64,000 bases of DNA from an uncultured Erysipelotrichaceae bacterium (GTDB taxonomy: Bacteria; Bacillota_I; Bacilli_A; Erysipelotrichales; Erysipelotrichaceae), in assembly GCA_944327105.1 (NCBI GenBank), contig CALVGN010000040.1:4247-68246 (forward strand), written 5' to 3'. The translations under genes and the position numbers were made by a program. Positions 46,815 to 52,581 of the stretch are shown piece by piece. Position 1 is the first letter of the stretch; each line of letters starts with the position of its first letter. The notes below the pieces were generated by a model. The model was not told the origin of the DNA and did not search any database. It worked only from the letters and a program-made list of their open reading frames with translations.

Positions 46815-47559
46815 TGGATGCTCCTTTCTCTTTTTCGATCAATATGATCGTGACATTATCATAACCGCCGGCTTTTAAGGCCAGTGCCAGCAGGCGGCGA
46901 AGCTTGAACTGGGTGGATTCCTGATCGTTTTTCAATACGTCTTCGATCGCCTGCTGGGGCACATAGCCGTATAGGCCGTCGGAACAGATCAGATAAGTGG
47001 ATATGGGTTCATTGATCACTTCCATGTCCATTCGCACATTGCTCCACACCCCAAGTGCATTGGTAATGACATTTTTTCGGGGATGATTGGCCGCTTCTTC
47101 CAACGTCAGCTGACCGGCACGGACCATATCCATCACCCAGGTATGATCATTCGTCAGACAACCGAATGTCGCATCATCGTATAGACCATACACACGGGAA
47201 TCACCGATATTGATCACAAAGGTACCGACACTACCGATAAATACACCGGTCAATGTGGTTCCCATCCCTTTGTAAATGGCATATTTCTGTGCTTTGTTGT
47301 AAATCTGGAAATTGGCGCGGGAAACATGGTATCGCACAAAGGTCATGGCGCTGGTCAGATCATCGAATTTTGGGGATTTGCTGAACGCATCCCCGATATA
47401 ATCCGTGGCCATCGTGCTGGCCACATCGCCGGCTTTGCCTCCGCCGATGCCATCGGCCACGATGGCCAATACATCGCCATAGGCATTGGCTGAGATGATG
47501 TAGGAATCCTGATTGGCTTTGCGGACAAGCCCTTTGTCCGTGACACCGTAACACTTCAT
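46798..47559 (-). CDS. prpC: PP2C-family Ser/Thr phosphatase
   Basis: 253-aa ORF with the motifs GLVRKANQDS, VADGIGG and DNVT. Confidence 0.9.
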   Translation of the reverse strand: MKCYGVTDKGLVRKANQDSYIISANAYGDVLAIVADGIGGGKAGDVASTMATDYIGDAFSKSPKFDDLTSAMTFVRYHVSRANFQIYNKAQKYAIYKGMGTTLTGVFIGSVGTFVINIGDSRVYGLYDDATFGCLTNDHTWVMDMVRAGQLTLEEAANHPRKNVITNALGVWSNVRMDMEVINEPISTYLICSDGLYGYVPQQAIEDVLKNDQESTQFKLRRLLALALKAGGYDNVTIILIEKEKGASNGSQQ

Positions 47560-48599
47560 CGAAACACCCCTTCTCGCTTGGCACGCAACTGGCCGCAGGC
47601 CGCATCGATGTCATCGCCATGGCGTGCACGCAGGGTGGCTTTGACCCCATGCTTCATCAACACATCGTAAAAGCGTAAAGCCACGCCCATATCCACACCT
47701 TGAAATCCATTTTCGTCCACGGCGTTATATGGGATCAGGTTCACATAGGCACATAAGCCTTTCACCAGTTTCGCTAAAGCAATGGCATGCTCATCGGTAT
47801 CGTTGACGTGACGCAAAAGGATATATTCAAAGGTGATCTTGCGATTGTTTTTGGATGCATAGTAACTTAAAGCATCCATCAATTCCTCCAATGGATAGGC
47901 ATGATTGACAGGCATCAGCGTATCCCGCAGTGCATTGGTGGGCGCATGCAGGGAAATGGCAAGATTGTATTGATGGTGTTGATCGGCAAAAAGGCGGATC
48001 TTGGGAACGATACCACAGGTGGAAATGGTGATATGACGGGCACCGATCTCCAATCCTTTGGGATGATTGACGATGGCACAGAAATCCATCACATTTTCAT
48101 AATTGTCAAAAGGTTCCCCAGTGCCCATGATGACGATGTTTTTCACCCGCTCATTGAGTGGTTCCAGTTCTTTGGCAACATATAAAACCTGCTGGACCAT
48201 TTCTCCGGCAGTCAGATCTCTCTGTTTTTTCAATAACCCGGAGGCACAGAATTTGCATCCCATGTTGCAACCCACTTGGCTAGAGATACAGACGGAATAG
48301 CCAAAGTGATAGTGCATGCGTACGCATTCCACTTTGGCATCATCAAAGCCAAACAGATATTTGACGGTCCCATCCTTGCTTTGTTGACGCTCGACGAGAT
48401 GTAGAGTGGTCGTACCATAGGTATCGTTTAACAGAGATTTCTGGGCTTTGGACATATCGGACATTAAATCAAAGTCTGATATTTTTTTACGATATAGCCA
48501 GTTGAATAACTGGTCAGCTTTGAATGATGAAAACCCCCAGGCGGTGAATTGGTCTTTCATTGCTTGGTGGGTTAGATCATAGATACTCTTTTTTGACAT
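47556..48599 (-). CDS. rlmN: 23S rRNA/tRNA (adenine-C2)-methyltransferase RlmN
   Basis: 347-aa ORF with the radical-SAM motif CNMGCKFC and the C-terminal catalytic Cys region. Confidence 0.92.
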   Translation of the reverse strand: MSKKSIYDLTHQAMKDQFTAWGFSSFKADQLFNWLYRKKISDFDLMSDMSKAQKSLLNDTYGTTTLHLVERQQSKDGTVKYLFGFDDAKVECVRMHYHFGYSVCISSQVGCNMGCKFCASGLLKKQRDLTAGEMVQQVLYVAKELEPLNERVKNIVIMGTGEPFDNYENVMDFCAIVNHPKGLEIGARHITISTCGIVPKIRLFADQHHQYNLAISLHAPTNALRDTLMPVNHAYPLEELMDALSYYASKNNRKITFEYILLRHVNDTDEHAIALAKLVKGLCAYVNLIPYNAVDENGFQGVDMGVALRFYDVLMKHGVKATLRARHGDDIDAACGQLRAKREGVFR

Positions 48600-48636: not shown

Positions 48637-49863
48637 TTATCCGGTGGTCAAAACCGCATAGTAGAAACCATCGGTGTCGGTTGAATCGGGGAATATGGTG
48701 GTTTCGACCAATCGATGATAGTTTGGATGACGATTGAGAAAGGATTGGATTTGTTTCTCATTTTCCTTTTTATTGAGTGTACAAGTGGAATACACCAATC
48801 GACCCTGTGGTTTCAACCAGGATGCCACATGGTCGAGCATATCCGATTGCAATTGTTGCAGTTCATCCAGTGTAGCGCTTTGCAATGTAAACCGCATTTC
48901 CGGCCTGCGGGAAAGCACACCTAACCCTGAACAGGGTGCATCCAATAAGATCCGATCGAATGTATGATCCGCATACTGTTGATCCAACAGGGAACCACAC
49001 ACACAAGTGGTATTGGTAATACCCAGTCGAGTCAGGGTCTGTTTTAACAATTCCACACGATGCGGATGATATTCCACCGCCGTGATGGAACCGCTATCCT
49101 GCATCAGCATGGCCATTTGACTGGTTTTGCTGCCTGGGGCAGCACAACCATCCAATACGATCATATCCTGCTTTAGATCCATGGCATTGACGATGGCCAT
49201 ACTGTTTTTATCCTGGATCACACATTGGCCAAGGTGATAATACGCACTGTCCATGATATTGCCATCATAGGTAAAACAAAGATCATTGAGTGGTTTGACC
49301 AACGGATCACGGATAGATGATGGATCGATCTTCAATGTATTCCAGCGTAAAAAGACTTTCGCTTCATGAAGCGTATTGCTTGCGAGTTCAATGGCTTTCT
49401 CTTTCCCATACTGGCTAGACCATAATTGCAATAACCATTTGGGTAAACTGGTTTCTATCATTGCCCGATCCAAGGGATCACTCGGCAATGGCGGCATTGT
49501 TTGTAATTTGGATACGTTTCGCAGTGTGGCATTGATGAAACCCCGATAAGCCGGCTTGGCTAGCTTGACGGTTTCATCGATGGCCACATAGGGTTTGACA
49601 TCCATGTATTTGAGTTGATAAACACCCATCACCAATAGGATCTCTTCTTTTTTACGGGCAGGTTTGTGTAAATAGGGTTTGAACCAATGCACGCATAGAT
49701 TGTAATGGCGCAATATGCCATAAACCATGGCACTGCCAAAATGCCGAGTAGCAGCATCATAGGTATTCAATGCTTTACGCATCGCCAGATTGGCATATTG
49801 ATGATCGATCAATACATCGATCAATAACTGATAGACTGTTTGACGAATATTCATAGGTTTCAC
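48637..49863 (-). CDS. rsmB: 16S rRNA (cytosine967-C5)-methyltransferase
   Basis: 408-aa ORF with a NusB-like N-domain, the SAM motif DGCAAPGSKT, and catalytic DAPCSG and TC motifs. Confidence 0.88.
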   Translation of the reverse strand: MKPMNIRQTVYQLLIDVLIDHQYANLAMRKALNTYDAATRHFGSAMVYGILRHYNLCVHWFKPYLHKPARKKEEILLVMGVYQLKYMDVKPYVAIDETVKLAKPAYRGFINATLRNVSKLQTMPPLPSDPLDRAMIETSLPKWLLQLWSSQYGKEKAIELASNTLHEAKVFLRWNTLKIDPSSIRDPLVKPLNDLCFTYDGNIMDSAYYHLGQCVIQDKNSMAIVNAMDLKQDMIVLDGCAAPGSKTSQMAMLMQDSGSITAVEYHPHRVELLKQTLTRLGITNTTCVCGSLLDQQYADHTFDRILLDAPCSGLGVLSRRPEMRFTLQSATLDELQQLQSDMLDHVASWLKPQGRLVYSTCTLNKKENEKQIQSFLNRHPNYHRLVETTIFPDSTDTDGFYYAVLTTG

Positions 49864-51914
49864 TCATTGGGCATGGTATTGGGATCGATGGAAATGGTGA
49901 TCCCACCTTTGATCCGTTGTGGTAATTCAGTGAACCAACGGTTCAACCAATCCTGTAAACTGGTCAAATCCTTGGTTCGAACGATCAAACGATACGTTTG
50001 ATCGCTTTGGGATTCACTTGGGCCGATCACATGACCATCCATTGGTTTGGTTTGAATGCATTGTTGCAATGCATTCAAACCATAACGCATCGGTGTTTTG
50101 ATCAGAGCGACCGCACTGTAGGGTGGTAAGACCATCTGCTGTCGATACGATAATTCATAACGGGTATACCCCTGAACATCCAGGTTTTGTAGATATTCAT
50201 TCAACGGATGCGCTGGATGATCCAGCTGGATGATACGATTAGGATCATCGTGTGGTAAGACCACATTATAAACCGCATCCATCACTTGTGCCATGGCCCA
50301 TTCATCATTGCGAAATTGTCGATAGGAAAGAGCACTGTCTCCATGCAACATGATCAAACCATCGGCATGGACAATGATCTGACCAAGCATACGATGGGTC
50401 GTGATCAATATTGCATAAGAGGAATGTTCATATGAATCGATAACACACAATGGATCAAGGCTATCATTGGTCAAATCAAAAATGGGGAATTCAGGATAAC
50501 GTTTGGATAACTGTTCTTTCAACGCCTGCACACCCGGCTTACGATAGACCCATTGCTGATGACGGCATTTGCTGCAACGCTGACGTTGGATGGTTTTACC
50601 ACAATTTGCACAGTAATAAACATTCGGCCGATCTGTCGAGTGTAGCAGATGATTGCAGGATGGACAAACCAGAAATTGATGACAATGCCCGCACTGTACC
50701 TGGTAATACCATCCTTTCCGACTCGTGGAGATTACCAAATGTTTTTTGGTGGAAACCATCTGATCCAAAAGATTCAGTGTAAACGGTGCGAATTCATGAT
50801 CGATACATTGCTTTTTCGTATCAATAAATCCAACTTCCACATCCTCCACTTTCTCGATCACTTGGATCTTATGTTGATCTATATCTTCTTGTAACGACAA
50901 AGGCGGGATCAAGGTCTGCAAGATCACAGTGGTTTGATGCAGTGATCGTATGGTGTCAACCACCTCATCCACATGGATACGGGGATCATTATCCTGCAGG
51001 TATGAGCCATCATGGGCCTGCAGGATAATGATCCGGGATGCATCCGGTTTGACTAATAATAATGATTTGGTTCCAACCGTAATCGTGGTTAGACCATGGG
51101 TAAAACGATAATAACTGATCCGTTTGAGCGCATTGGATAAACTGGGATCATACAGATCCACCACATCGATCTGTGACTGAAGCCAACGATGGATCAATTG
51201 AGCAGATAATAATGATGGAACAATGATCACTACCGATTCATTGGTTTGAATGGATCGATACAACCAATCCAGTAACGGTCCTTGGATAAATTCCGAAAGA
51301 TTCATCTTATAAAGGATTGAGTTGGAATCGAGGGGAATATCCTTGGCACGATACGGATGTTTAAACGATGGTTGGACCACTTGTGGCAATGAAAAAGATT
51401 TGACCAACACACCCTTTTTGATCAAAGTATTGATCCGATTCGATGAATAGAGATCAATGAGTTGATGATAATCATCACAATGATGATGGTTCAACCATTC
51501 AATGATCTCTGTTTGTGCCACATTGAGTTTGGTTTGATTTAGGATCGTTTGATCGATATGGATCTTAGGGACCAATAACGATCGATATGGTTGTTCCACT
51601 CTTAAGAATGATGGGATCATTTGCACCAAGATCTTTCCTAACGAGCAAAACCCTTGGTAAGCCATGGTCAACGCAAGCTGATATTGGATCTCACTTAAAA
51701 AAGAATAAGCATTGATCAAACCATCGATCGGCTTTAAAGCATTTTCCGTGTTTTCTTCCATCCATGTACTGGAAATCACGATCCCATAGGTCATGGTCTT
51801 ACCAAAGGAAACCGAAACCAACATACCAAAATCCAACTGGAACTCACTGGTGTAATCATAGGGTCGATTCAAGGCATAGGGAACATTGGCAATCACGACT
51901 TCATTGCGATACAT
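49860..51914 (-). CDS. priA: primosomal protein N' (PriA) homolog lacking helicase ATPase motifs
   Basis: 684-aa ORF with a PriA N-terminus (VANVPYALNRPYDYTS...VSVSFGKTMTYGIVIS) and a Cys-rich Zn region (CGHCHQFLVCPSCNHLL...CANCG...CSKC). The Walker A GxGKT is absent, and DEEH is replaced by LQAH (IIILQAHDGSY). Confidence 0.8.
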   Translation of the reverse strand: MYRNEVVIANVPYALNRPYDYTSEFQLDFGMLVSVSFGKTMTYGIVISSTWMEENTENALKPIDGLINAYSFLSEIQYQLALTMAYQGFCSLGKILVQMIPSFLRVEQPYRSLLVPKIHIDQTILNQTKLNVAQTEIIEWLNHHHCDDYHQLIDLYSSNRINTLIKKGVLVKSFSLPQVVQPSFKHPYRAKDIPLDSNSILYKMNLSEFIQGPLLDWLYRSIQTNESVVIIVPSLLSAQLIHRWLQSQIDVVDLYDPSLSNALKRISYYRFTHGLTTITVGTKSLLLVKPDASRIIILQAHDGSYLQDNDPRIHVDEVVDTIRSLHQTTVILQTLIPPLSLQEDIDQHKIQVIEKVEDVEVGFIDTKKQCIDHEFAPFTLNLLDQMVSTKKHLVISTSRKGWYYQVQCGHCHQFLVCPSCNHLLHSTDRPNVYYCANCGKTIQRQRCSKCRHQQWVYRKPGVQALKEQLSKRYPEFPIFDLTNDSLDPLCVIDSYEHSSYAILITTHRMLGQIIVHADGLIMLHGDSALSYRQFRNDEWAMAQVMDAVYNVVLPHDDPNRIIQLDHPAHPLNEYLQNLDVQGYTRYELSYRQQMVLPPYSAVALIKTPMRYGLNALQQCIQTKPMDGHVIGPSESQSDQTYRLIVRTKDLTSLQDWLNRWFTELPQRIKGGITISIDPNTMPNE

Positions 51915-52581
51915 GACTCAACTCCTGTTTGATATAGGTTTTATCGTCCTTGGTCAAACCATAACTATCCCTGCATTTTGCAATGGTCATTTTGACAATG
52001 GTCGATGAAAAGGGGTGATCTTTCATATAAGCAATGGTCTTGACCATATCCTGTACCATCAAAATCTGCAAACACCATGCCACCATCATCTGGACATAAT
52101 AATCATCACATTTCACATCCGTTAACATCGAATACAGATCAAGATCGATATATTTGGATGCCACCAATGCGATATTGAGATAGGAACGCACCCGAAAGGG
52201 TGCGTTCCCTTTCAAATCATTTTGATGATCTTGAAAATAACATGGTTCAAACCATTTATATCCTTTATAGATACTATCGGTATACACCCATGAATCGATG
52301 TGATCGTTCAAAATGTCATAATGGTGATACCATAAACTTTTTTCACGCTTTTTACAGAACAGGATCATCCCATAGAGCATCACATCTTCATACGTGGCAA
52401 AATCATAATCATCCAGAATGGTCAAATCATCCCCATATTTTTTGGCCAATGCTCTAAGTTTCGGTATCCGTACCCCATTGATCGGATAGTGTGTCATCGC
52501 GATTTTCTGATGAAATTTTGCATAATCACAATCCACCTGTTGCATATATTCATTCTTCATTAACTGTTGCAATGCATTCAT
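51901..52581 (-). CDS. DNA alkylation repair protein (AlkD-like HEAT-repeat family)
   Basis: 226-aa ORF. The N-terminal pattern ...DCDYAKFHQKIAMTHYPINGVRIPKLRALAKKY is typical of PF08713 proteins. Confidence 0.7.
   Translation of the reverse strand: MNALQQLMKNEYMQQVDCDYAKFHQKIAMTHYPINGVRIPKLRALAKKYGDDLTILDDYDFATYEDVMLYGMILFCKKREKSLWYHHYDILNDHIDSWVYTDSIYKGYKWFEPCYFQDHQNDLKGNAPFRVRSYLNIALVASKYIDLDLYSMLTDVKCDDYYVQMMVAWCLQILMVQDMVKTIAYMKDHPFSSTIVKMTIAKCRDSYGLTKDDKTYIKQELSHVSQ

Follow-up and report, generated by a model that had tools for sequence, protein, structure and literature searches.

The 64,000-nucleotide stretch of DNA analysed here (the window; contig CALVGN010000040.1 of assembly GCA_944327105.1, from an uncultured Erysipelotrichaceae bacterium) carries a priA-like gene, the sole PriA homologue of its genome, which begins with an ATG codon 8 nt downstream of an AGGAG Shine-Dalgarno sequence and is followed by rsmB and rlmN (Table 1). 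The order priA-rsmB-rlmN is conserved in the genome with the window and in its relatives, the gene standing at the orthologous position upstream of rsmB-rlmN-PP2C-prkC. Going by its domain content, alignments, synteny and phylogeny, the encoded protein is best regarded as an orthologue of PriA that has ceased to be a helicase.

Table 1. Features of the priA-like gene, its 684-residue product and the neighbouring genes, in window coordinates (aa, amino-acid residues of the priA-like product unless stated otherwise; AF2, AlphaFold2)
Feature	Residues (aa)	Coordinates	Strand	Remarks
rlmN		47556-48599		after rsmB
rsmB		48637..49854	-	directly downstream of priA; positional-orthology anchor
priA-like gene		49860..51914	-	684 aa plus stop
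3'-DNA-binding domain (3'BD)	1-105	51600..51914	-	Pfam PF17764; most conserved part in the clade
Winged-helix-like domain	106-190	51345..51599	-	predicted: AF2 helices 122-166, strand 170-175; whole-chain match to PriA structures
Former RecA-like lobe 1	191-345	50880..51344	-	predicted fold kept, catalytic motifs lost
Former Walker A site, NLSEFIQGPLLDWLY	205-219	51258..51302	-	8-residue deletion where canonical relatives have VTGSGKTE (alignments A1, A4)
Former Walker B / DExH site, IIILQAHDGSY	295-305	51000..51032	-	DEEH replaced by LQAH
Former motif III site, QTLIP	333-337	50904..50918	-	GSATP in canonical PriA
Former RecA-like lobe 2	346-600	50115..50879	-	Cys-rich region inserted within
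Cys-rich region	408-450	50565..50693	-	four CxxC pairs; eight putative zinc ligands for two Zn sites as in PriA
Former motif V site, ILITTHRMLGQ	502-512	50379..50411	-	ILVGTQMIAKG in canonical PriA
Former motif VI (arginine finger) site, DAVYNVVLP	546-554	50253..50279	-	QxxGRxGR in canonical PriA
C-terminal domain (CTD)	601-684	49863..50114	-	terminal IDPNTM kept; modelled as a beta-alpha CTD
DNA_alkylation (AlkD/AlkC-type HEAT-repeat) family gene, diverged		51901..52581	-	product of 226 aa; overlaps the priA start by 14 nt

That the open reading frame (ORF) is PriA-like, with a 3'BD, a Cys-rich insertion and a place upstream of rsmB, was claimed in the original prediction, and Pfam, alignments and synteny all agree with it. 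Residues 8-101 match PF17764 (PriA_3primeBD) with an E-value of 9.6e-15 and a score of 54.7 bits against a cut-off of 22.7, and the same family is matched in the homologue P0004 and in the PriA of G001, which is the only further species-level genome in this GTDB genus. The match of PF18074 (PriA_C) to the CTD is sub-threshold (E 0.044), and neither PF00270 (DEAD) nor PF00271 (Helicase_C) is matched in the 684-residue protein. With the NCBIfam priA equivalog model TIGR00595 the protein scores 133 bits, far under the cut-off of 230, and it falls far short of all the PRK05580 sub-models of the NF0040xx series (54-144 bits against cut-offs of 763-1249). By sequence its closest relatives in the PDB are the PriAs of K. 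pneumoniae and E. coli (HMMER, E 5e-25), and identity to canonical PriA is only about 20%. Orthology is indicated by the single copy, the conserved position and the nesting of the clade to which the protein belongs within the PriA tree of its own family.

The positions of the motor motifs were read from three alignments (A1, n = 10; A2, n = 32; A4, n = 11) that set the protein beside canonical PriAs from its own family and from further phyla, and motifs I, II, III, V and VI of the PriA superfamily 2 (SF2) core are all absent. At the former Walker A site, G212 pairs with the first glycine of the canonical GVTGSGKT and is followed by an eight-residue gap; as aligned, the P-loop is deleted rather than substituted. 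The original prediction had set NLSEFIQGPLLDWLY in the place of this motif, and that placement stands, but the P-loop is missing there and not altered in place as had been supposed. Its reading of IIILQAHDGSY as the counterpart of IIVDEEHDSSY is borne out by HMMER, which places 'iiilqahdgsy' directly under the PriA sequence 'iviDEEHDssy'. Neither [AG]x4GK[ST] nor DExx occurs anywhere in the 684 residues, and the further claim that no GK[ST] P-loop exists elsewhere needs amending only in that two GKT tripeptides are present, at residues 38-40 in the 3'BD and 439-441 in the zinc finger, both outside the RecA-like lobes and both absent in the close homologue P0004. A shifted or cryptic P-loop was rejected on these grounds, and careful alignment uncovered no displaced DExH motif either. 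With the canonical motor motifs gone, the statement that the protein cannot be an ATP-driven helicase is well supported from sequence for the canonical SF2 mechanism: it would neither bind nor hydrolyse ATP, nor translocate, in the SF2 way. A descendant of PriA that lacks the catalytic lysine of Walker A and the acidic pair of Walker B, it is a probable pseudohelicase.

Outside the motor, several features of PriA have been kept. The eight cysteines of the Cys-rich region (C408/411, C417/420, C435/438 and C447/450) are invariant in every PriA of the three alignments, as are R399 and G401 of the 'NRRG' motif (NRxG), R591 and the LPPY loop, and P678 of the terminal DP is nearly so. In an AF2 model built on 32 sequences, mostly canonical PriAs (mean predicted local distance difference test score, pLDDT, 86.8; predicted template modelling score, pTM, 0.85), strand 199-204 passes straight into helix 206-223, with no loop at the position of the P-loop. 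Compared with the PDB by Foldseek, the top matches of the model are all PriA chains (8fak, 6dgd and 4nl4), with E-values down to 2.7e-40 and template modelling (TM) scores of 0.66-0.71, and Mfd ranks after them at 4.5e-9. Since an alignment made up mostly of canonical proteins could bias the model towards PriA, the prediction was rerun with the seven motor-less sequences only; the order of secondary structure elements was unchanged (pLDDT 78.6, pTM 0.73) and the best match was 4nl4 (E 2e-35, TM 0.62). The RecA-like fold of both lobes and the six-domain architecture of PriA are thus predicted to be retained.

A protein that has lost its catalytic motifs might be the product of a decaying gene, and the evolutionary record of the locus was examined with this in mind. 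Orthologues from independent metagenome assemblies share 98%, 94%, 59% and 58% identity with the window protein, at least five lineages, which are no more than 25-60% identical to one another, have kept the frame open, and all copies are 684-686 residues long. Pairwise Nei-Gojobori ratios of nonsynonymous to synonymous substitution (dN/dS) are 0.15-0.24 for the priA-like gene, 0.10-0.21 for rsmB and 0.03-0.07 for rlmN and prkC. Within the gene, the ratios in close pairs are 0.06-0.08 for the 3'BD, 0.04-0.06 for the Cys-rich region and about 0.2 for the dead lobes (0.20-0.22 for lobe 1). Identity within the clade is 0.71-0.74 for the 3'BD against 0.5-0.6 for the lobes, canonical PriAs showing the opposite pattern. 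About 5% of single-base changes in the gene give a stop codon, so that roughly 12 to 200 stops would be expected under neutrality at the observed dS of 0.11 to 1.9; all copies are nevertheless open. The gene is maintained by purifying selection, which is concentrated on the 3'BD and the zinc module. Its rates are not the pseudogene-like ones that the original prediction had named as a possible objection, and a pseudogene was rejected in view of the dN/dS and of a frame kept open across lineages with saturated synonymous sites. An assembly or sequencing artefact was likewise rejected, the same deletion being present in more than nine independent assemblies from several studies.

The loss of the motor is confined to a small group of sequences. 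A word-indexed search of 5.8 billion proteins returned only the four orthologues just mentioned as close relatives, none with a helicase Pfam domain, the next matches being canonical PriAs of about 20% identity. When 1.84 billion cluster representatives were searched exhaustively with a profile, the representative of the clade itself and a single additional protein, P0037 (E 1e-69), were the sole matches apart from the cloud of canonical PriAs, which starts at E 2e-42 or weaker. P0037 is 26% identical to the window protein, and the PriA of G001 shares 25% identity with the window protein and 26% with P0037; in both, every motor motif is absent, the eight cysteines are kept and the gene neighbourhood is the same. 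Of 251 genomes that cover 83 genera of the GTDB family, 245 pass the TIGR00595 cut-off, and the remaining six comprise two of this genus, three with contig-end fragments of ordinary PriA and one without detectable priA. The three fragments (G023, G183 and G229) were rejected as candidate degenerate PriAs, a fourth genome (G157) has a partial contig-end fragment that still scores above the cut-off, and no further degenerate PriA was found beyond this genus among the 251 family genomes. The first 30 relatives from the family and order all carry GxTGSGK[ST], DEEH, SATP, GTQM and QxxGRxGR, or trivial variants of these. A scan of genome contigs with a back-translated pattern of protein P0001 gave no match. 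By RlmN, the lineage belongs to the Erysipelotrichaceae, and the relatives closest to it among those with a name are uncultured Erysipelotrichaceae, Bulleidia, Solobacterium, Longicatena and Faecalicoccus; about 52 of 80 named loci scanned by means of this protein have priA upstream of rsmB-rlmN, all with Walker A and DEEH or DEEQ, the only exception being a contig of a metagenome-assembled genome (MAG) from the same genus. A survey of relatives for the same losses, as the original prediction had suggested, thus finds them only inside the genus and all motor motifs kept outside it. As sampled here, the motor loss is limited to one genus, phylogenetically shallow and evolutionarily young.

A maximum-likelihood tree covering four motor-less lineages (P0037 was left out) recovers them as one clade with a Shimodaira-Hasegawa-like approximate likelihood ratio test (SH-aLRT) support of 99, and this clade falls within the PriAs of the family to which they belong. 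The tree may be affected by long-branch attraction; because the deletion and the synteny are shared across the clade, the data suggest a single origin of motor loss in the ancestor of the genus. The stem of the clade is 5.3 substitutions per site long, where the median tip has 0.5, a roughly tenfold excess, maximum-likelihood branch lengths being rough at such divergence. The neighbouring RsmB is not accelerated: its two copies in the genus share 50% identity, and they are 33-40% identical to RsmB of other genera. The acceleration is therefore specific to PriA.

Several observations on other members of the family are set apart here. The genome without detectable priA (G078, genus g76) has its best TIGR00595 matches in frames of other sizes; its assembly, in 220 contigs, is rated 100% complete, and four congeners have canonical PriA, so that either an assembly gap or a genuine loss of priA may be at hand. 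DEEQ takes the place of DEEH in motif II, with the other motifs intact, at loci L086, L089 (Stecheria intestinalis), L095, L112, L119, L131 and L136. The PriA of G008 (L040) is mildly degenerate, with GVTASGKS, with QSFGRSAR for QxxGRxGR and with a long branch (1.3), its Walker A lysine and DEEH being intact.

The genome with the window is small (1.61 Mb in 59 contigs, 97% complete and 0.04% contaminated), and its organism is present in chicken-gut and faecal metagenomes. PriA_3primeBD is matched exactly once in this genome, and a single locus scores as PriA by TIGR00595, the other matches of this model being weak, partial (E 1e-14 or worse) and lying in frames of 1155, 664 and 398 residues that are not PriA-sized. 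A canonical paralogue elsewhere in the genome, together with pseudogene-like rates in this copy, had been named by the original prediction as a finding that would count against it; searches of the 97%-complete genome with PF17764 and TIGR00595 turned up no second priA. Candidate partners for primosome assembly are present. A DnaD-like gene (C13:7746-8297, minus strand) adjoins nth, as in B. subtilis, and its DnaB_2 domain scores above the cut-off, and at C31:56845-59039 (minus strand) a DnaB-like gene is followed directly by a gene for a DnaI-like AAA+ protein with an intact GPTGTGKT. The Pfam scores of these partners are weak (DnaB_2 16.6 bits, DnaI_N 19.7 bits, DnaD_N 17 bits). As a check for acceleration across the whole primosome, DnaI_N was sought in the other genomes and is weakly detected throughout the family, so the weakness is not specific to the genus.

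PriA of Gram-positive bacteria acts with DnaD, DnaB and DnaI, and the K230R form of E. coli PriA, though it has no ATPase, helicase or translocase activity, can still sustain restart through PriB (PMC5778457). The Cys-rich region of E. coli PriA swings round single-stranded lagging-strand DNA and licenses partner binding, while a duplex lagging strand needs prior unwinding (PMC13594977). We propose that the ATPase motor was destroyed in the ancestor of the genus, by deletion of the P-loop and loss of motifs II, III, V and VI, and that what remains would recognise abandoned forks or D-loops through the surfaces of the 3'BD, winged-helix domain and CTD, with the Cys-rich region and the dead lobes holding the single-stranded DNA (ssDNA) of the lagging strand. 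The protein would then be an ATP-independent platform that recruits DnaD, then DnaB, then DnaI with the replicative helicase, and it would work only where a single-stranded lagging-strand template is already exposed. It may in this sense be a natural equivalent of the E. coli priA300 (K230R) protein and of Deinococcus PriA. That the protein is still a primosome loader, as the original prediction had suggested with reference to K230R, we infer from the 3'BD, the Cys-rich region, the PriA fold, the purifying selection and the DnaD-, DnaB- and DnaI-like partners, and we consider it likely that it serves as an ATP-independent fork and D-loop recogniser and DnaD-DnaB-DnaI assembly platform restricted to substrates of this kind.

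Several findings weigh against this proposal. The roughly tenfold acceleration and the identity of only 25% between lineages of one genus imply a constraint much weaker than that on canonical PriA, so some of what the ancestral protein did may have been lost. In the closest pair the dN/dS of the CTD exceeds 1, on about ten substitutions only, with deeper pairs giving 0.2-0.3. P0004, P0005, P0037 and the G001 protein have not kept D20, the aspartate next to the invariant tyrosine of the 3'BD; this position is also variable in canonical Bacillota PriAs. The signal of transcription is weak, consisting of one contig of 223 nt and one of 225 nt from two metatranscriptomes in which DNA carry-over is possible, and all the genomes are MAGs, every sequence coming from a MAG or a metagenome.

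The rapid divergence could also mean that, after losing its motor, the protein left replication restart for another DNA role, for instance binding DNA damage or DNA structures in partnership with the AlkD-like product of the upstream gene. For that gene, all four homologues match PF08713 (best E 1.7e-6), the window copy only weakly (E 0.038), and a PDB profile search with this ORF gave no match. Homologues lie at L056:2659-3318, where the overlap with priA is 4 nt, at L058:140-742 and at L043:1562-2257. Each of the three deep lineages of the motor-dead genus has the pairing, which is restricted to that genus: AlkD-like homologues in canonical relatives (20-30% identity, 8 of the 23 other genera of the family searched) are on other contigs, and different genes precede priA. 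This clade-specific pairing with overlapping start and stop, the extremely long stem and a divergence that continues (25% identity within the genus against 50% for RsmB) speak for a change of role. The positions kept across the lineages are, however, those of canonical PriA (the 3'BD tyrosine, the eight cysteines, R399/G401, R591 and the PPY loop), the genome has no other PriA to perform restart, and adjacency of genes does not by itself show functional coupling, so that we regard a departure from restart as unlikely. A related idea is that PriA was re-specialised in this genus and not just switched off, the AlkD/AlkC-type HEAT-repeat lesion binder and the motor-less PriA forming a new, translationally coupled two-gene module that links damage recognition to helicase reloading by DnaD, DnaB and DnaI; we hold it to be quite unlikely as well.

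It might also be argued that the gene is a relic on its way to loss from a shrinking genome, constrained now only against a toxic misfolded product. The genome is indeed small (1.6 Mb), the NCBIfam scores are far under their cut-offs, and the gene evolves fast, with a dN/dS above that of rlmN and prkC (0.03-0.07). Yet a dN/dS of about 0.2 resembles that of the functional neighbour rsmB, and the constraint is domain-specific, the 3'BD and the Cys-rich region being held most tightly. Divergence worth tens to hundreds of neutral stops has left the frame open, and three lineages at only 25% identity keep the gene with identical length and architecture; a relic is on this evidence very unlikely. 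As for residual catalysis, nucleotide might be bound or hydrolysed at a non-canonical site, such as the second, weak nucleotide site that has been proposed for PriA. That site has not been located in any structure, however, and the protein has no [AG]x4GK[ST]; the sequences at the places of motifs I, II, III, V and VI, where the motifs themselves are absent, differ among the three deep lineages, and a cryptic ATPase is extremely improbable. An ATP-independent restart platform is accordingly the reading of the gene that we prefer.

A separate observation concerns the neighbouring genes. Between the window and the 94%-identical strain L041 (GCA_944326175.1), dS is 0.11-0.16 in priA, rsmB and the upstream ORF and 0.99 in rlmN, and between L041 and a window-like strain (L044) it is 0.70-0.82 in PP2C and prkC, which looks like a recombination breakpoint between rsmB and rlmN.

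Viewed against canonical PriA (structures 4nl4, 6dgd and 8fak; TIGR00595; B. subtilis), the protein has the same six-domain order, 3'BD, two-zinc Cys-rich region, predicted fold and position upstream of rsmB; it differs in sharing only about 20% identity, in scoring below every NCBIfam cut-off, in having no ATPase motif and in a 3'BD that is more conserved than the lobes. Like the priA300 (K230R) protein of E. coli, it would be an ATPase- and helicase-dead PriA, and priA300 still assembles primosomes (PMC5778457). Whereas priA300 depends on PriB and differs by one engineered substitution, the rest of its motor being intact, the erosion described here is natural and complete and has occurred in a PriB-less, DnaD-type system.

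The closest precedent, which the original prediction did not mention, is the PriA of D. radiodurans, a natural pseudohelicase without ATPase or helicase activity that binds ssDNA, forks and DnaB (Lopper, Boone & Morrow 2015, PMC4504706). PriA in Deinococcus-Thermus appears still to serve restart as a scaffold (PMC4504706), and the Erysipelotrichaceae protein resembles it in being derived from PriA, in having lost the catalytic residues of Walker A and B and in having kept the Cys-rich region (PMC4504706, Fig 1). The Deinococcus-Thermus proteins keep a P-loop in which the catalytic lysine is changed to arginine (PMC4504706), whereas here that loop has been deleted and the erosion is more complete, with motifs III, V and VI erased as well. 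The two cases also differ in lineage and depth, the present loss belonging to the Bacillota, in the Erysipelotrichaceae, and being recent and at the level of a genus rather than phylum-wide, and in the partners available, which are DnaD, DnaB and DnaI here as opposed to a direct contact between PriA and DnaB in Deinococcus. The Deinococcus protein has been tested biochemically; its counterpart in the Erysipelotrichaceae is described here from sequence and predicted structure.

A helicase-dead PriA is thus already known from Deinococcus, and what is new is an independent and evolutionarily young example from the Bacillota, a phylum that uses the DnaD-DnaB-DnaI primosome. The sister genera, some of them with cultured members (Faecalicoccus, Longicatena and Bulleidia, for example), are fully canonical and provide, together with the motor-less genus, a natural before-and-after pair, in which one can ask what the PriA motor is for and which surfaces of the protein suffice for restart. 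This would allow a test of whether the Gram-positive pathway is, like the PriA-PriB pathway of E. coli, independent of the helicase activity of PriA.

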